57,021 bases of DNA from Candidatus Saccharimonadota bacterium (GTDB taxonomy: Bacteria; Patescibacteriota; Saccharimonadia; Saccharimonadales; JACDBH01): contig JACDBH010000007.1 in NCBI GenBank assembly GCA_013694995.1, positions 1 to 57,021 of the forward strand, given 5' to 3'. Below are positions 1-35,270 of this stretch, one piece after another; position 1 is the stretch's first letter; each line of letters opens with the position of its first letter. A model generated the notes under the pieces. It ran no database searches. It was not told the origin of the DNA and saw only the letters and a list, made by a program, of their open reading frames with translations. Made by a program: the position numbers and the translations under genes.

Positions 1-1690
1 TAGTACCGTCTACAACACCTGAGTTAAAGCTAAGATTAGTGGTGTTATTCTCAATATCAAAGTCAGACACGACTGCAGTGCCGCCATTGTCATTAATGAC
101 TTCTTTAACTACGGTGAGGGTAGGGGCAACAGCTGTATTGGTTATTTCACAAGTAATATCTTCATCAAGCTCGAGAGTTACTACACTGCCGCTCAGTTCA
201 TCGCCATCACCCCCGGTGCATGACCAGCTTCCGGCAGAATAACCAGAAGGACCGGTTTCACTCAAAGTGTAGCCCGTACCGGCTGCGGCCGCATAAGTTT
301 GGGTTGTTGCGACTAATGTATCCGCAGGAGTTCCGGCTTCATTAATAAGTGGAGTCGCGGTTCCTTGCTGGGCTTTGAGAATCCAGTCATCGGCAAAATT
401 ATTACCGCCACTATTATTTACCACTGTTTTCTTTAGGGTTAGTGTCGGAGCGATATCGTTGTTGGTAATAGTACAAGTGATATTCTGGTTACTCGCAAGA
501 ACTACATTTCCACCCAATACCGTAGGACAGCCCGTGCCAGTAATCGATACGAACTGGTAGCCTATAAGTCCTGTTTCATTAATAGCGTAAGAACCAGGGC
601 TTAAACTAAGCGTCTGGCCTGAAGTAACTGCAGTGCCACCGATGCTCAAACCGAATGCATTAACACCTGCCGAACCTCCATTGTCATTTGTAACGCTCTT
701 GATAAGTGTGATCGAACCCTGCTGGCGGGTATTGGTAATGATACAAACCACATCAGAATTGTTTGGCGGTGTAACAGAGAACTGCCCAGTGCTAATAGTT
801 GTTACGGTAAGGATAGAACCCGCACCATTATTGTCTCTGCAAATTACGCTAATGGCATAGTTAGTGAGTGAGGAACCAGTTGCCGCTGTCTCGCGGAATG
901 TATGCGAAGCGTTTGTAACCGCCCTCTCACCAGTTGTGCCCGAGTCTCCAACAGCTGAAGCATAGACTACACCATCTATACTCAAATTAAATTGCCCGCT
1001 ATCAGTTGTGGGAGTGAGGGATTTACGTATTTCGAGTTTACTTGCACCAGTAGAGATAATACAGTCGGCTGGATCGGAATTTACTATTTGAGAAGGCAGT
1101 GAACAGACATCAATAAGCTCGCTTGTACTACCGCCAACTTCACTAATATCGATAATACAAGTAGCAACTGTGTCTTGTGGTGCGGCCTCACCAGTACCAA
1201 ACGGGTCAGTACTAGTAGTCGCTACAGAACACGATGTGGCATAAGGTCCGCCACTGTTAAGTAAGACCGAACTTGTACATCTATCAAACCTGGTATCGCC
1301 ACAGCTGTAAATATCGGGACTCGTAGCAGTCTGAGTAGCCGGGTTACCTGATATATTCACACAAACGGCATAATTAGCAAAGCCGTCATTATCAGTATCA
1401 AACAAGGCGCAAGCATCGCCCGTATTCGCGCCCGTAAAGTTTATTTTATCCCAGCTCCAGGAAACAGTAAGGGTGGAGGGCAGTCCAGATTCGTCTACGC
1501 ATAACATGGTCAAATCACGCTGCTGGGATCCAACATCGTTGGCTCCTTGCTGGTCATTTGTGCAGACAGGTGCAGCTTCGGCAGTATTATTCCAAAAAGC
1601 CGAGAACGGCACAATTTGGGCTGATAGTAATAAAATAACCGCTGAAGAATAGAGCACTGAATTTTTAAGTTTAGTAATAAATGTGTGCAT
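1..1690 (-). CDS. Large secreted surface protein with tandem Ig-like/prealbumin-like (SpaA-type) repeats; runs off the left edge (partial)
   Basis: Missing from the ORF track and translated by hand. ATG at 1690 follows GGGAGG. Signal-peptide-like N-terminus MHTFITKLKNSVLYSSAVILLLSAQIVPFSAFWNNTAEA, then a Cys-rich domain, then repeats of the form TLTLxKxVxNDNGG...Y.L.ETG..GY....C...TCxITN. No stop before position 1. Confidence 0.85.
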   Translation of the reverse strand, partial: MHTFITKLKNSVLYSSAVILLLSAQIVPFSAFWNNTAEAAPVCTNDQQGANDVGSQQRDLTMLCVDESGLPSTLTVSWSWDKINFTGANTGDACALFDTDNDGFANYAVCVNISGNPATQTATSPDIYSCGDTRFDRCTSSVLLNSGGPYATSCSVATTSTDPFGTGEAAPQDTVATCIIDISEVGGSTSELIDVCSLPSQIVNSDPADCIISTGASKLEIRKSLTPTTDSGQFNLSIDGVVYASAVGDSGTTGERAVTNASHTFRETAATGSSLTNYAISVICRDNNGAGSILTVTTISTGQFSVTPPNNSDVVCIITNTRQQGSITLIKSVTNDNGGSAGVNAFGLSIGGTAVTSGQTLSLSPGSYAINETGLIGYQFVSITGTGCPTVLGGNVVLASNQNITCTITNNDIAPTLTLKKTVVNNSGGNNFADDWILKAQQGTATPLINEAGTPADTLVATTQTYAAAAGTGYTLSETGPSGYSAGSWSCTGGDGDELSGSVVTLELDEDITCEITNTAVAPTLTVVKEVINDNGGTAVVSDFDIENNTTNLSFNSGVVDGT

Positions 1691-1908: not shown

Positions 1909-2841
1909 TCAAAAGTGATTGATGAAACCTTCTAGAGATTTGGCAAGTTCAGCATTATTAAGATTTCGAAGTTCAAGCAGTGCTTTTTGCTTATAGTTTT
2001 CTGCCTCACTTATAGCACGATTTATAGAGTCATCCTTTTTCAGTATTTCTAAGACTTGTGGGGCTGAAACGTCATCGCTTTCCAAAAGTTTTTTTAGCGT
2101 AACCTTATTTGGTCCATGAAGAGATAGTATAACTGGCAGGGTATAATTACCTTCGCGCACGTCGTTACCTACGGACTTACCGGTTGTTTCGGGCGATTCA
2201 ACGAAATCCCTAACATCATCCATATACTGGTAATAGAAACCAAAATTTTCAGCAACATCAGACAGCACTTTGAGCTCATTTGAGTCTAACCCGGAAACAA
2301 GCCCACCTAAATTTACCGAGGCAATAAACATAGAAGAGGTCTTGCCCCTGACCGCCGACAGGAGTGATTTTGTGGTACGCCTAGTATTAAAATTATCTCT
2401 AAGCTCAATTGCTTGGCCTTCGCATAAACGCATAATTGTTTCAGCCAAAATTACGCCAGCCTCAGCACTCACGTTTGCCGCCAATGCGCATCCTTTGGCG
2501 AACAAATAATCACCCGCAAGGATCGCCGAATTTGTACCTTCTTTTGAATTTATTGTTGGTACGCCCCAGCGCAATGCTCCGATGTCAATTATGTCATCGT
2601 GAACCAGGCTGGCCAAATGCACAAGCTCTACCGCAGTTGCTGCGTTAATGACTTTATCGTCAATTTTTTTCCCATTATAAAAAGCGATAGCGATGACCAG
2701 GCTTGGCCTTAGCCTCTTCCCGTGTGCGTGTAGCAGACGCCCAGCACCACTGATGTTTTTTGGTGCTAAGCCTTTTAGTTTTTTATCTACAAGATTAAGA
2801 AAACGGGGCAGGTTTTTTATTCCAAAATCTAGTGAATTCAC
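1909..2841 (-). CDS. Trans-isoprenyl (polyprenyl) diphosphate synthase, probably medium/long-chain (IspB/HepT-like)
   Basis: GKRLRP, first Asp-rich motif HLASLVHDDIID, AILAGD, GQ, KT, second motif YQYMDD, GKSVGNDVREG. Confidence 0.93.
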   Translation of the reverse strand: MNSLDFGIKNLPRFLNLVDKKLKGLAPKNISGAGRLLHAHGKRLRPSLVIAIAFYNGKKIDDKVINAATAVELVHLASLVHDDIIDIGALRWGVPTINSKEGTNSAILAGDYLFAKGCALAANVSAEAGVILAETIMRLCEGQAIELRDNFNTRRTTKSLLSAVRGKTSSMFIASVNLGGLVSGLDSNELKVLSDVAENFGFYYQYMDDVRDFVESPETTGKSVGNDVREGNYTLPVILSLHGPNKVTLKKLLESDDVSAPQVLEILKKDDSINRAISEAENYKQKALLELRNLNNAELAKSLEGFINHF

Positions 2842-13446: not shown

Positions 13447-14199
13447 TTATTTCAGATAGTAACTAACTGTAACGCTGTAACTTATTTCATTCTCGCCAGG
13501 CTGGACACTCAGGCTTGATTCTGTCTTACTTCTTTCATCTGATAACGTAACAGAGTCATATGGCGTAATGCCCCCGAATCCAGCGCCATCTTCAACTGAT
13601 TGAACTTTGCCTAAATTTGCGCCCAGATTACGAGCCGACTGTTCTGCCTTTGCCCGGGCGTCTTTAGTAGCCTCGTCACGGGCTTGGGATTCTAATTCTT
13701 TACGCTTTTCGGTACTGAAGGAAGGCTGAGGTGAAATCGTACCACTTGGGTCAGTTGTAATAAGATAATTCTGAATTTTCTGAGCCATTTCTTGGTCGCT
13801 AACAGTTACTGTCAGTTGTAAAGTGAACGTTGTGGTTCCATCGTCGGATTTTTCAGGGTAATAATACTTATTATCGTAATTACTGGAGTTGGTCTTTATA
13901 TCTTTATCTTCAACCCCTAATTCTTTAAGTTTTGCTACTAGTTCATCGCTCTTTTTACTCAAAGCAGCGATTCCAGCTTGGCTGTCAGTGTTTTTTAGCT
14001 CATACATTGGGTAAAATACAAATTCGTCAGGGGTGGTTTTGACGACAGCCTCACCGGTGACTTTTACTGTTCGGTCATTACTTGTAGCACCTGCCCACGG
14101 CCGCCATACGGCCAGCATGCCAATTACTACGGCTGCCAGGATCAAACTAATAATACGAAAATCCAGGTTGAGCGTTAATTTGCTATTGTTTTCTGCCAT
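13447..14199 (-). CDS. SIMPL (DUF541) domain protein with N-terminal TM anchor
   Basis: VTGEA..PD, A.DARAKAE.A..LG..LG, PGE..I..SV.V.Y pattern. Confidence 0.85.
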   Translation of the reverse strand: MAENNSKLTLNLDFRIISLILAAVVIGMLAVWRPWAGATSNDRTVKVTGEAVVKTTPDEFVFYPMYELKNTDSQAGIAALSKKSDELVAKLKELGVEDKDIKTNSSNYDNKYYYPEKSDDGTTTFTLQLTVTVSDQEMAQKIQNYLITTDPSGTISPQPSFSTEKRKELESQARDEATKDARAKAEQSARNLGANLGKVQSVEDGAGFGGITPYDSVTLSDERSKTESSLSVQPGENEISYSVTVSYYLK

Positions 14200-14291
14200 T
14201 TATTTAAGCTCCGTTTATGCTTTTTAGTGTGCTCCAGCTATTAAAAAATGTCAAAATATGTAGTTTTATAAGCTAGTAAATATAAAACTAC

Positions 14292-14320
14292 TTGACAAAT
14301 TCATAAAAGCGTGCTACAAT
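14292..14320 (+). promoter_or_regulatory. Near-consensus sigma70 promoter with extended -10
   Basis: TTGACA (14292-14297), 17-bp spacer, TG-C-TACAAT (14312-14320). Confidence 0.8.
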
Positions 14321-14326
14321 GTAATT

Positions 14327-14606
14327 ACAAACGTATTCTCTTAAATAAAAGTGAAAACTAAACAGTTTAATAACTTATTATCCCTTGCTTAACGCAAGCG
14401 TTCGAATGCTTATTATAGTGACACAGTTTAGTCCGAGTAACGAAACGTAAACCGATATTATTAAGAAAGTAATGTTTGCAACAACATACTAAAGTGCGCG
14501 GGTATGACCGACTCAATTAGTTTGGTCCTAATCAAACTTAGTTCTTTACGCGCACTACAATGATTAGCAATGGGAAAACTTCCGTGCTAATTGAATTTAT
14601 GCACTT
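14327..14606 (+). ncRNA. Candidate structured non-coding RNA of unknown family; contains a 13-aa sORF at 14351-14392
   Basis: Lies downstream of the consensus promoter with no plus-strand gene after it. Several stems, with G-U pairs favouring the plus strand: AGTGCGCG/CGCGCACT (14493-14500/14549-14556), ATTAGCA/TGCTAAT (14563-14569/14585-14591), CTTGC/GCAAG. Ends are approximate. Confidence 0.5.
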
Positions 14607-14615
14607 ATAAGATTA

Positions 14616-15221
14616 TTATGCCTGCTCCAAAGGAAAATGGTGTATTAAAGTTTCTGTTGATATAGTACTGAGCACGGTTTTTCCAAAATCCAAGGCATAA
14701 AGCATATCATTGACGTCTACATTTAATATTACGTCGTCACGCCGGCGCCTATATATATCCGCCATTGCCGGGGCGAAATACCTAAAGTCCGTATCATTTA
14801 CTACGAAAAACATTAAGGGCTTAGCAATTTTGTTATTTTGTATGCCCTCACGGTCCCTGAGTTCGGCATTGACGCGAAGTTTTGCTTCATCGGTATACGG
14901 CAGACAAAAATGCTTCACCAGTGTGCTCGATGTCCCGTTCTCACTGTCTGGCAATACTTCGTTAGTGACTATATGGATGTCGGGCCGATCATAATTATTT
15001 TTCACTGTTCTTTTAAAGAAATTAATCATCAAAACGTCGGTCCTAGACCCTTCGGGTTTAATAGACGAGGCAGGAAGGTAGTTTCGTAGACGATGCACGC
15101 ACACACCTGAACCATTTTTCGATAGTCCCAGCGATCCCATCACATATACGACATCCTGCCTGAAACGGGTGGCCTCTTCAAAATAATTAGCTGTGGAATT
15201 ATTTTTATCTGCGAGTGACAT
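14616..15221 (-). CDS. Hypothetical protein
   Basis: 201-aa ORF with ATG start; no recognisable motif. Confidence 0.7.
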   Translation of the reverse strand: MSLADKNNSTANYFEEATRFRQDVVYVMGSLGLSKNGSGVCVHRLRNYLPASSIKPEGSRTDVLMINFFKRTVKNNYDRPDIHIVTNEVLPDSENGTSSTLVKHFCLPYTDEAKLRVNAELRDREGIQNNKIAKPLMFFVVNDTDFRYFAPAMADIYRRRRDDVILNVDVNDMLYALDFGKTVLSTISTETLIHHFPLEQA

Positions 15222-15891: not shown

Positions 15892-18732
15892 GTGATAGAG
15901 TCTAAGGCAAGTACTGGTACGCTGAATCCTAATCAGCTTAAAGCCGTTGAGCATTCGGCTGGGCCGCTTTTGGTTGTGGCCGGTGCCGGAACAGGCAAAA
16001 CCCGGGTTATTGTTGAACGTATCTTACATTTGATAAGCCTTGGTGTTGATCCGCGTTCTATTTTGGCACTGACTTTTACCGAAAAAGCTGCCGGCGAGAT
16101 GATGGATAGGGTAAATGCCGTGCGCGGCGGATTCACACTCGATACTACAATAGCTACTTACAACCGCTTCGGCGATGAACTTTTAAGAACCTACTCCGCC
16201 GAGATTGGCTTTGGTAGCACTGTCTTACTTGGAGAAACAGGGCAGCTGGTTTTTATGCGCGAACACCTCGATGAATTGGGCTTAGATTATTTTGCCCCAA
16301 TCTCAAGTCCAGATAGCCAACTTACATTGCTAGCCGGATATATTTCACTTTTAAAACAGCAACTAGTACGTGCAACTGATTATATAAATTATGCCAAAGC
16401 AATACCAAACGGGAGTGAAGAAGATAAGCTCGACAAACAAAAGCATCTGGAACTTGCCAGTATATATAGCAAATATATTGAGTTATGCCGCAAAAATAAC
16501 GTTATTGATTATGATGACCAATTATATTTGACAATAGAATTGCTGCAAAAAAGACCGAACATAAAAAATATTCTACAGCAGCGCTACCAGTTTATTCTGG
16601 TAGACGAATTCCAGGACACTAATCCGATGCAATCAGCCCTTTTGCACTTACTGGCCGGTAAAAGCCAAAATATAATGGTTGTCGGTGATGACGACCAAAG
16701 CATATATGGCTGGCGGGGGGCTACGCTTGCTAATATACTCGGTTTTAAAAAGCATTATCCTAAAACCACAGAAATTACCCTTATAGAAAATTACCGCTCG
16801 AGCCAAGCTATCCTGGATAGTGCCTACAGGCTAATTCAAAATAATAATCCTGACCGCCTGGAAGTTATAAATAAACTTAATAAACGTTTAGTTGCTCAAG
16901 CCGAGGATGGCAAACAGCCACAAACACTGCATTTTTCCAGTTTAGACGCAGAAATGACTTGGATCGCTGAAGATATTGCCTTAAGGCTTAAGACCGGTCA
17001 GGATCCAAGCACTATTTCCGTACTAGCACGACGTAATCATATAGTTAAGAAAATGCACGAAACTATGGAGCTTCATGCAATTCCACACTCCGTTGCCGGG
17101 CTAAGTAACGACCTATACCAACAGGTAGTAGTCAACCAACTTATAGAAACTTTAAAAGCTATTAATGATCCGCTTGATAATATGGCGCTGTTTCATGTTC
17201 TTGGTGGTCCTATGTTTAATATTAGCCCTACTGACCTGGCTTCTCTATCAGTTGTTAGCAAGAAAGAACACATTCCTTTATCAGAAGTTGTAGATAGTTC
17301 GCAGCACAAGAATGCTGTTTCAGCACTTAAGCAAATAGGTTCATGGCGTGAACGCACTCAAAACTTGAGTGTCGGGAGCTTAGCTTATGCAGTTATGACC
17401 GACAGTGGCTGGAAACACTCTCTTTATCAGCGCGCCGAAACTGACGCAGTGACCGCTTTACAAGTTCAAGCGTTAGGCCAATTCTTTAAAACTCTCAAAG
17501 AATTTGAGCGTATATCCGACATCGGAAGTCTGCAAAACTACTTGCAAAATTTACCAGCTCTGCGGGCAGCTGGCAGCGAGTTACAGGATGCCTCCCTAGA
17601 TATATCCGACTCGCTCATCAATATTTTGAGTGTCCACCGCTCAAAGGGACTAGAATGGGATACGGTTTATATTATTGACTGCACTGAAGGGTCATTCCCG
17701 ATGCGTAACTTTGGCAGTTCGTTAACCGTACCGGACGAACTAAAAACCCAGAGTGAAGCCGATGATCATATGGCAGAAGAAAGACGTCTTATGTATGTAG
17801 CTTTAACTAGAGCTAAAAGAGAATTAGTGTTAACATATTCCGATATACATAACGGGGGGGCAAAGCGTAAACCATCCCGCTTTATTTCGGAGTTATTTGG
17901 CAAAGATCCTGAGGTTGCCATACACGAGGAACAAGCGCAGCAAACCGTTATGGAACTATTTGCCCCAGCCCAAGAACATGTAGCTTATGTAACTTTGCCA
18001 GCGCATATGACTGCTAATAATAAATTGGTGTTAACCGTCAGTCAAATCGATAGTTGGCTGCGCTGCCCACTTAACTTTTACTTTATCTACGTACTACAAA
18101 TACCACTTCCTCGGGATCCAATCCAGCAATACGGTACAATCGTCCATTCATGCATCCAAACCATTCATGAAGCTTTAAGTGCAGGCACACAGCTAAGCCT
18201 TGAGACGTTACTTCAGAACGCAAAAAGACAGTTACCCCGTGAGGGTTATTTAACGGCCCGGTCGCGAGAAAGAGCACACACTCAAGCACTCAAAACTATA
18301 AAGCTATTGTACGATCGTTTTTCTAAAGAACCGCTACCCGATGAGATAGAAAAACCATTCCGGGCTGAAGTGCCGGATACAAAGTTAATAATGACTGGGC
18401 GGATTGATGCTGTTTACCAGACAGGAGATGGAGGTATTGAAATCCGTGATTATAAAACCGGAACTTCAGTGACTTCGGCCGATAAGGCCAAAAAGCGGGC
18501 CCAAGCCAGCAATCAGCTTACTCTTTATGCCTTAGCATGGAAGATAATTCATGACAAAATACCGTCACTATTAACCCTTGATTTTGTAGAGACAAACCAG
18601 CAGGGATCTGTCAGAAAGCAACAAAAATCGCTGGACACATTAATAAAAAAACTTCGTGATATGGAACAAAAACTTTTAGATGGCGTTTACCCGGAAGGCA
18701 AAGACCATACTTACTGTCGCCATCCCCTGTAA
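15892..18732 (+). CDS. UvrD/PcrA-family SF1 helicase fused to a C-terminal PD-(D/E)XK (RecB-like) nuclease
   Basis: AGAGTGKT, LTFTEKAA, DEFQD, VGDDDQSIY, NYRS, SVHRSKGLEW, EERRLMYVALTRAK; C-terminal GRIDAV...DYKTG...QL.LY. Confidence 0.92.
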   Translation: MIESKASTGTLNPNQLKAVEHSAGPLLVVAGAGTGKTRVIVERILHLISLGVDPRSILALTFTEKAAGEMMDRVNAVRGGFTLDTTIATYNRFGDELLRTYSAEIGFGSTVLLGETGQLVFMREHLDELGLDYFAPISSPDSQLTLLAGYISLLKQQLVRATDYINYAKAIPNGSEEDKLDKQKHLELASIYSKYIELCRKNNVIDYDDQLYLTIELLQKRPNIKNILQQRYQFILVDEFQDTNPMQSALLHLLAGKSQNIMVVGDDDQSIYGWRGATLANILGFKKHYPKTTEITLIENYRSSQAILDSAYRLIQNNNPDRLEVINKLNKRLVAQAEDGKQPQTLHFSSLDAEMTWIAEDIALRLKTGQDPSTISVLARRNHIVKKMHETMELHAIPHSVAGLSNDLYQQVVVNQLIETLKAINDPLDNMALFHVLGGPMFNISPTDLASLSVVSKKEHIPLSEVVDSSQHKNAVSALKQIGSWRERTQNLSVGSLAYAVMTDSGWKHSLYQRAETDAVTALQVQALGQFFKTLKEFERISDIGSLQNYLQNLPALRAAGSELQDASLDISDSLINILSVHRSKGLEWDTVYIIDCTEGSFPMRNFGSSLTVPDELKTQSEADDHMAEERRLMYVALTRAKRELVLTYSDIHNGGAKRKPSRFISELFGKDPEVAIHEEQAQQTVMELFAPAQEHVAYVTLPAHMTANNKLVLTVSQIDSWLRCPLNFYFIYVLQIPLPRDPIQQYGTIVHSCIQTIHEALSAGTQLSLETLLQNAKRQLPREGYLTARSRERAHTQALKTIKLLYDRFSKEPLPDEIEKPFRAEVPDTKLIMTGRIDAVYQTGDGGIEIRDYKTGTSVTSADKAKKRAQASNQLTLYALAWKIIHDKIPSLLTLDFVETNQQGSVRKQQKSLDTLIKKLRDMEQKLLDGVYPEGKDHTYCRHPL

Positions 18733-34805: not shown

Positions 34806-35270
34806 ATGAATAAGAAAAAACAACCCACCGGTGTTATTTCGAATAAGCGGGCAAGATTTGATTTTGATCTCAAAGAACCGCTGACTGCTGGTATTGTCTT
34901 AAATGGTCCAGAAACACGCAGCCTGCGCTCTTTACACGGCAGCTTGCAAGGTGCCTTTGTTCAGATAATAAGAGGTGAGGCCTGGCTCATGAACTGTCTA
35001 GTTACGCCACTCAAGACCAATGCCGCGCATTTGCCGTCTGAAATGCAGAACCGCAACCGGAAGCTACTGCTTAAACAACGGGAGTTGGATGATCTTATAG
35101 AAGCCAAACAACAGGGCAATACCATCGTACCGCTTAGACTTCTCACCAGGGGCAGGTTTATTAAGGTTGAGATCGCAGTTGGCCGCGGTAAAAAGCAGTA
35201 TGATAAGCGCCAGACAATAAAAAAACGTGACGAGAATCGAAATACTGCCCGAGAGCTTAAGAACCGTTAG
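34806..35270 (+). CDS. smpB: SsrA-binding protein
   Basis: NKRARFD, AGIVL.G.E..SLR, RNRKLLL, GRGKKQYDKR; start moved to ATG 34806. Confidence 0.96.
   Translation: MNKKKQPTGVISNKRARFDFDLKEPLTAGIVLNGPETRSLRSLHGSLQGAFVQIIRGEAWLMNCLVTPLKTNAAHLPSEMQNRNRKLLLKQRELDDLIEAKQQGNTIVPLRLLTRGRFIKVEIAVGRGKKQYDKRQTIKKRDENRNTARELKNR

Follow-up and report, generated by a model that had tools for sequence, protein, structure and literature searches.

Orphan RNAs with complex folds that are restricted to one lineage form a known category of bacterial ncRNAs, and the raiA-motif RNA, OLE and the like were found before any function was known for them. Another type is represented by RsaE/RoxS, sRNAs of monoderm bacteria that have C-rich loops. 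Saccharibacteria depend on a host, are ultrasmall and have genomes of less than 1 Mb; genetically tractable co-cultures with hosts exist, and a full-text literature search returned no description of small RNAs in this group. As comparison system we used the raiA-motif RNA/ModT, a structured bacterial ncRNA (PMC11706538).

Here, we analysed a stretch of 57,021 nt (the window; coordinates are positions within it unless a contig, C4 or C5, or a locus with an L-number is named) from a Saccharibacteria genome of 766 kb, which is assembled in 7 contigs and 98.75% complete. We are confident, short of certainty, that the region 14292-14600 on the plus strand is a stand-alone gene for a structured ncRNA of ~270 nt and that this RNA belongs to an uncatalogued family that is confined, in the genomes sampled, to the class.

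The promoter-to-RNA locus occupies a gap of 416 nt (14200-14615), which is flanked by minus-strand genes for a SIMPL/DUF541 protein (13447-14199, assigned by Pfam) and for a 201-aa protein without a Pfam family (14616-15221), the latter gene being convergent to the RNA gene. No plus-strand ORF of at least 40 aa lies wholly inside the gap. One ORF on this strand (14033-14227) runs from within the SIMPL gene 28 nt into it, and a minus-strand frame of 49 aa starting with TTG (14367-14516) has no Pfam match. The preliminary description of this DNA had pointed out a near-perfect promoter in front of a region with several hairpins and no protein gene, and these features are present; the gap holds no conserved ORF. 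The promoter (14292-14320, plus strand) consists of TTGACA (14292-14297), a 17-nt spacer, and TACAAT (14315-14320) preceded by TG (14312-14313). With 11 of 12 consensus positions and an extended -10 element, it was the best of seven promoter-like sites in a scan of 13800-15200, for which shuffled sequence gives 4.2 ± 2.3 sites. The layout CTTGACAAA..TGTGCTAnnAT precedes each family member examined; judged by its sequence, the promoter of the RNA gene is a sigma-70-type consensus with extended -10. A 946-aa fusion of a UvrD-type helicase and a PD-(D/E)XK nuclease, AddA/GajB-like according to Pfam and PADLOC, is encoded 1.3 kb away from the RNA gene (15892-18732, plus strand).

The predicted transcript contains a 13-codon frame, VKTKQFNNLLSLA*, which starts with GTG (14351-14392, plus strand) and had been compared to the coding part of a tmRNA. 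The literal features behind this comparison are all there: UA at positions -5/-4, a frame that begins with G and has a hydrophobic end (...SLA), and a stop codon in the loop of the hairpin CTTGC (14384-14388)/GCAAG (14394-14398). Accordingly, the locus was proposed to be the coding piece of a tmRNA, either split off or derived, or else an sRNA encoding a 13-residue peptide, the relevant C-terminus of such a tag being ...KTKQFNNLLSLA. We regard this reading as barely credible. The smpB gene is indeed encoded in the window (34833-35264), but the genome also carries a canonical one-piece tmRNA with a tag of its own on contig C4 (C4:88193-88581, which equals L001 1501-1889), scoring 80.8 bits with the Rfam model RF00023 at a cut-off of 47. 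This tmRNA has tRNA-like ends, with GGGGCUG as 5' end, CCA as 3' end and a T-arm, and encodes the unusually long tag AKDSLTAMVNRVQNMRFAGALQAA* of 24 residues ending in LQAA. ARAGORN, which had been suggested as the tool for finding a full ssrA, does not call this gene, so the existence of an intact ssrA was confirmed by the Rfam model and by inspection of ends and tag. Since the preliminary description itself had named an intact ssrA with a different tag as decisive against a split tmRNA, that reading is out.

The locus itself points in the same direction. In the window, ARAGORN found two tRNAs and no tmRNA, and Rfam at gathering scores returned the same tRNAs only; between 14100 and 14750, neither a match to RF00023 (E up to 10) nor a tRNA-like element (ARAGORN, Rfam) was detected, in agreement with the earlier remark that tRNA-like ends are absent here. 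Upstream of the GTG at 14351 there is no Shine-Dalgarno sequence, and the codon is located inside a small hairpin, AGU-GAAA-ACU. Among 22 other aligned family members, not one has a peptide like VKTKQFNNLLSLA or a frame at the same place; sense-strand frames of at least 8 codons that start before the conserved hairpin P3 (see below) vary in position, frame and sequence, and three members have none. As there is no related frame in these 22 members and no Shine-Dalgarno sequence, we infer that the tag-like frame is a chance frame in an AT-rich RNA and unrelated to tmRNA. This removes a false lead: there is no split or second tmRNA at this locus, and the idea of an sORF-bearing sRNA was likewise abandoned.

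A comparison with Rfam (4227 families) gave no match to the RNA at gathering scores and nothing but noise at E values up to 10, so the search that had been proposed against known families, including tmRNA and 6S, came back empty. A full-text search of the literature, in which the 5' sequence itself was also used, returned nothing on this RNA. RNase P RNA and 5S rRNA were rejected as identities, as both genes are located elsewhere in the genome, and the 6S model RF00013 has no match in the genome or in the locus region. SRP RNA was also rejected: there is no match to RF00169 or RF01854, and the domains of Ffh were not found in the genome (M domain PF02978: no candidates; SRP54 GTPase domain PF00448: no match). 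In 40 relatives, PF00448 gave only P-loop-sized matches of ~18-22 bits, one of them borderline at the cut-off, and as a control 14 of 14 control genomes matched. If real, this would mean an order without Ffh and FtsY, on which a full-text search found no literature. In PMC10768705, ftsY and SRP are mentioned with APY09_ locus tags and next to comparisons with XH001n, the host-only control; these genes are therefore taken here as those of the host.

A second orphan RNA unit was observed between dprA and pth on contig C5 (L159 ~2141-2545, plus strand). Its promoter is TTGACA-17-TGnTAAAAT (11/12; L159 2141-2169), and stretches rich in C as well as, near 2545, a terminal hairpin of high GC content are also present. 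A tblastn search with the supposed DprA-like neighbour from locus L043 found nothing in the own genome, and the real dprA was located by Pfam. The covariance model R2, which was built for the window's RNA family, does not match the C5 unit (8.6 bits, E 3.7), indicating that the two RNAs are distinct families. The consensus promoter of the window's RNA family was also seen in front of other short terminated transcripts of ~50-110 nt (predicted) in two further genomes (L011 of G008 and L012 of G017), and L012 contains a SAM riboswitch at 227-426.

Relatives of the RNA were collected in several ways. BLAST against 60 related genomes gave matches in five, three of which covered the promoter only. 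One genome, G001, has in common with the window the promoter, the initial 16 bases of the RNA (ACAAACGTATTCTCTT) and, on the 3' side, the hairpin GTGCGCGGG..TTTACGCGCAC. Allowing up to one mismatch, the 16-mer was found in 14 of 301 genomes of the order, with a single occurrence per genome, compared to 2 for the reversed control. Nine of these sites are directly downstream of a promoter and the other five, in coding DNA, are chance occurrences. Five of the nine promoter-bearing sites represent short RNAs of 180-200 nt with clear intrinsic terminators, which align along the whole core of the window's copy; clear intrinsic terminators also end most members of the family as a whole.

Covariance models extended this collection, with one RNA copy per genome. 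Model R1 matched in at least 8 of 151 genomes of the order; for R2 the number was at least 7 among 151 genomes sampled from the class, including 5 from other orders. These frequencies are lower bounds, as in searches of more than 40 genomes only ~20 candidates per genome were scored. The five members from other orders keep the promoter, ACAAACG, P3, CGUUUG and the terminator, but not the UAUUCUCUU stretch. R2 found no match among the ~20 candidates scored per genome in 150 other genomes of the phylum. Within the own family, R2 matched 3 of 20 genomes and the P3-only model R3 detected a clear P3 in only 2 of 20. TTGACA followed after 30-50 nt by GNATTCTCTT was found in 5 of these 20 genomes, namely the own one, all three of genus g2 and one doubtful case.

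A scan of genome contigs for the pattern of promoter plus 5' end returned 42 loci, with ~39 expected by chance according to our own arithmetic. Seven of them match R2 at E <0.05, all titled Saccharibacteria or Saccharimonadales, and three more at E 0.57-0.72 (Acutalibacteraceae, Bacteroidales and Sulfurovum titles) were taken as noise. A scan of metagenomes gave 66 loci, 12 with strong model matches. Viral contigs contributed 3 pattern loci, none of which matches the model, and blastn against 50,697 phage records produced only a chance match of 28 nt. As far as sampled, and judged from sequence searches, the family is confined to the Saccharibacteria class of this genome, and even with lower-bound frequencies its distribution is patchy and not universal.

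The fold of the family was derived from comparison. RNAalifold on six sequences yielded a closing helix P1 (ACAAACG/CGUUUGU) together with two hairpins, the small and variable P2 and the long and irregular P3, with the 5' end ACAAACG pairing with a CGUUUG box ~145 nt downstream. In 23 distinct sequences, standard pairs were found in 94.2% of the cells, compared to 29-40% when the partners were slid by 1-3 columns, and 15 of the 23 modelled pairs change on both sides; none of 500 shuffles reached the observed values. The alignment behind these pair counts was fitted to the covariance model and thus favours the structure, but compensated changes are also evident in plain MAFFT alignments. P1 is paired in 93% of the cells (23 sequences) and its pairs covary, of the two modelled pairs of P2, one shows two-sided changes in 6 and the other in 3 of the 23 sequences, and in P3 11 of 15 pairs change on both sides. 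At the base of P3, 17 of 23 sequences have a G:U pair, and a promoter precedes every copy, which together identify the plus strand as the functional one. By this comparative sequence evidence, compensatory changes maintain the predicted helices in different families and orders.

P3, the hallmark of the family, has a GCGU..AC / G..CGUA base, a GGC/GCC top and an 8-nt loop, and the window's copy has this hairpin. Here, UGCUU/GAGUA replaces ACCC/GGGU and GAC/GUC replaces GGC/GCC, so that the helix is compensated. The copy scores 104.2 bits with R2 over 14327-14482 and 43.7 bits with R3 at 14396-14453; as the window's sequence is a seed in R1, R2 and R3, its own scores are partly high by construction. 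Independent support comes from relatives that were found from other seeds and align to the window's copy with compensated changes.

In the consensus core, 23 pairs are modelled over 148 positions. P1, P2 and P3 form a three-way layout, and the stretch between P1 and P3 is much longer on the 5' than on the 3' side. This geometry bears on the idea that the RNA is an abundant RNA polymerase-binding RNA, i.e. a functional analogue of 6S RNA (or Ms1). The lack of an RF00013 match in the genome leaves room for such an analogue, and the strong promoter, the single copy, the ~190 nt of core plus terminator and the pairing of 5' and 3' parts would fit. However, there is no rod with a central bubble; the pairs are too few and the junction is very asymmetric, the RNA is patchy even within its own family, and the second orphan RNA of the genome could equally fill the role. 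We therefore consider a 6S-like function quite unlikely.

In the window's copy, the RNA is predicted to extend from 14327 to 14600 (plus strand; ~270 nt), the start being deduced from promoter spacing and the onset of conservation and the 3' end being uncertain. It opens with the near-invariant 5' end ACAAACGUAUUCUCUU (14327-14342, plus strand), recognized by 16-mer searches and P1 covariation. Positions 14328-14333 form the 5' strand of P1 and 14334-14342 the conserved pyrimidine-rich stretch. The candidate hairpin AGU-GAAA-ACU with a GNRA-type loop follows at 14350-14359 (plus strand); the sequence and the core fold are weak evidence for it, and UGAAA-like motifs were seen by eye at a similar place in several relatives. 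P2 (CUUGC-UUAAC-GCAAG, 14384-14398, plus strand), which is the hairpin that had been likened to H5 of tmRNA, is conserved in position and variable in sequence, according to the alignments. P3 occupies 14398-14448 (plus strand) as an irregular hairpin of three helical segments with an 8-nt loop, as defined by model R3 and covariation. The 3' strand of the closing helix lies at 14461-14478 (plus strand), where P1 covariation and the predicted fold agree: in the latter, the partner of UUAAGA (14461-14466) is UCUUAA in the 5' end, and that of UGUUUG (14473-14478) is CAAACG (14328-14333).

Two elements follow the core. The accessory 3' domain of 62 nt (14494-14555, plus strand) is common to four other members and consists of an outer stem (GUGCGCG/CGCGCAC) and an inner hairpin with the exposed loop GUCCUAAU. 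The transcript is predicted to end in a 12-13-bp hairpin with a short U-rich tail (14562-14600, plus strand), which abuts the stop codon of the convergent gene. In the fold this hairpin is probably a weak terminator; a terminator scan does not call it. The folding energy is ordinary, with z values of -1.77 for 14327-14615 (289 nt) and -1.0 for the 156-nt core (14327-14482), and it is the covariation in relatives, and not the folding energy of a single sequence, on which we base the reality of the structure.

Around this core, the family is highly modular, and its size ranges from ~95 nt to ~770 nt between close relatives. The longest copy (~770 nt) is that of G001, in which Rfam at permissive thresholds found only noise. 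It includes a ~90-nt long-hairpin module (L009/L028, RNA positions ~100-200), which recurs in unrelated places and is also present at L019 (G010), L020 (G058), L021 (G021) and L022 (G040). In G010, this module was observed apparently within a polymerase-like reading frame, with short inverted repeats on either side. A second insert is a GC-rich domain of ~280 nt with GNRA-capped hairpins, located just 3' of the conserved 5' end in three members of different families (RNA positions ~40-330 in L025 of G040 and ~220-500 in L028 of G001; also in L031 of G178). It is 72% identical between families, shows compensated changes and has no Rfam match. In contrast to the large G001 copy, its congeners G014 and G018 have mini versions of ~95 nt without P3, which keep P1 and the UUCUCUU stretch. 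The mini RNA of G018 (L047 ~1465-1561, minus strand) comprises promoter, a CAAGCGG/CCGCUUG stem, UUCUCUUU and terminator, and its gene adjoins a tRNA gene; the one of G014 (L179) has the same features, again without P3.

The window's copy has no insert, but the extra 3' domain described above, which it has in common with G001, G040, G178 and the metagenome locus L158. The outer stem of this domain pairs in 35 of 35 cells, with 5 of 7 pairs changing on both sides. The inner stems differ entirely and the loop is kept in 3 of 5 copies: it reads GUCCUAAU twice, in another member it is CUCCUAAU, located in a CCUCC run, and the remaining copies have a looser variant. The unpublished genome G002 contains only the 3' half of the domain; no other result presented here depends on this genome. 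At L158 (1153-1210), the domain was seen to be followed by CACCUCC and then by AAAGGAGG-ATG of the next gene, and judging from this arrangement the hairpin may possibly mask the Shine-Dalgarno sequence of that gene.

The exchange of peripheral parts is one component of a far-reaching interpretation, according to which the RNA would be a core ribonucleoprotein RNA peculiar to Saccharibacteria, a tertiary-folded scaffold or catalyst with exchangeable peripheral domains that carries out a housekeeping task in cells seemingly without 6S and SRP. Were this true, the patchy detection would reflect extreme divergence and not absence. We consider it unlikely.

The genes around the RNA gave no hint of a fixed partner. 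The 28 proteins encoded next to the RNA at 14 related loci comprise methyltransferases, RadC, sortase, HD, DUF2130, CHAP/LysM, ABC ATPases, a cytosine methylase and others. They have no family in common, nor do the window's own neighbours bring in a shared one. A defence island was considered as well and rejected, as PADLOC had no match for 27 of 33 flanking proteins and only a generic helicase, methylase or ATPase for the rest. The downstream gene is convergent at 7 of 15 loci, including the window, and the downstream genes are unrelated. Since the neighbouring genes are not conserved, the RNA likely acts in trans and is not a cis leader.

A cis element, either a riboswitch-like leader (P1-closed aptamer plus hairpin platform) or an antisense controller of a neighbour, is very improbable on the same grounds: downstream there is a different gene at every locus, and the RNAs end in clear terminators that are followed by separate promoters or gene ends. 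The layout of a P1-closed multi-helix core directly in front of a terminator is indeed that of many riboswitches, and at L158 the CACCUCC could mask the GGAGG of the next gene.

Base-pairing with mRNAs has more in its favour. In such an sRNA, the 5' UAUUCUCUU and/or the UCCU-containing loop of the 3' domain would pair with targets, and P1 and P3 would serve as stabilising or chaperone-binding scaffold. A stand-alone RNA with a terminator and a variable gene context would be in agreement with this, the 5' pyrimidine stretch is the most conserved single-stranded element across the order, the mini RNAs of G014 and G018 keep it and lose P3, and the loop of the 3' domain (GUCCUAAU in two copies, CUCCUAAU in a CCUCC run in another) resembles an anti-Shine-Dalgarno sequence. 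However, the number of genome-wide sites complementary to the 16-mer in the own genome was 4 compared to 7.35 in shuffles, hence without excess, and neither the 5' stretch nor the P3 loop nor the 3'-domain loop showed enriched complementarity near 971 gene starts (-30..+6), a search that used crude gene calls and cannot judge seeds of 6-7 nt. In addition, the members from other orders keep P1 and P3 and not UAUUCUCUU, and in the window's copy the pyrimidine stretch is predicted to be paired. Base-pairing is therefore possible, though doubtful.

With no excess of complementary sites, no fixed neighbours and a consensus that is not 6S-like, we favour protein binding over base-pairing. P1 closes a core that holds the small variable P2 and the conserved irregular P3, and the RNA would act in trans as a protein-binding regulatory or scaffold RNA, whose surfaces would be the invariant 5' single strand, the internal loops of P3 and its apical loop. 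This mode of action is our leading guess from the modelled architecture and a tentative one. Gene, family and fold are results of the comparison itself, and the modes of action are what we infer from them.

Taken together, the analysis adds a new family, that of the window's RNA, to the known group of structured RNAs in bacteria that are restricted to one lineage. Of the readings offered in the preliminary description, the new ncRNA was the right one, now provided with a family supported by covariation and without Rfam match, a fold and a taxonomic range, whereas the tmRNA/sORF interpretation was wrong. An independent, covariation-supported family suggests that the regulatory RNA repertoire of Saccharibacteria exceeds the catalogues. 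It combines a near-invariant 5' end with swaps of whole domains among close relatives, and its core of ~150 nt is a concrete and compact target on which structure can be probed and for which partners can be sought in cultivable strains.

Compared to described systems, the resemblance to tmRNA (RF00023) is only superficial and limited to the surroundings of the short frame: the window's RNA lacks both pseudoknots and a tRNA-like domain, and its frame is not kept in relatives. With 6S RNA (RF00013) the family has in common that it is probably abundant, that its short forms are ~190 nt long and that the ends pair, but it differs by the missing rod with central bubble, the missing model match and the patchy distribution. 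Like sRNAs of the RsaE/RoxS type, the 3' domain exposes an unpaired UCCU/CCUCC motif in a hairpin loop; unlike in these, the loop is present in only 3 of 5 copies of an optional domain and there is no target enrichment. The dprA-pth RNA on C5 occurs in the same organisms and is similar in having a strong extended -10 promoter, a stand-alone gene and pyrimidine-rich exposed loops, yet its gene and sequence differ from those of the window's RNA, which lacks fixed neighbours. The closest counterparts are the raiA-motif RNA/ModT and OLE. There is no similarity in sequence or model (none of the 4227 Rfam families matches), and compared to the raiA-motif RNA and OLE the core is smaller (~150 nt), largely single-stranded, A-rich and unusually modular. 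What unites them is the design: stand-alone genes, complex folds supported by covariation and the restriction to one lineage.
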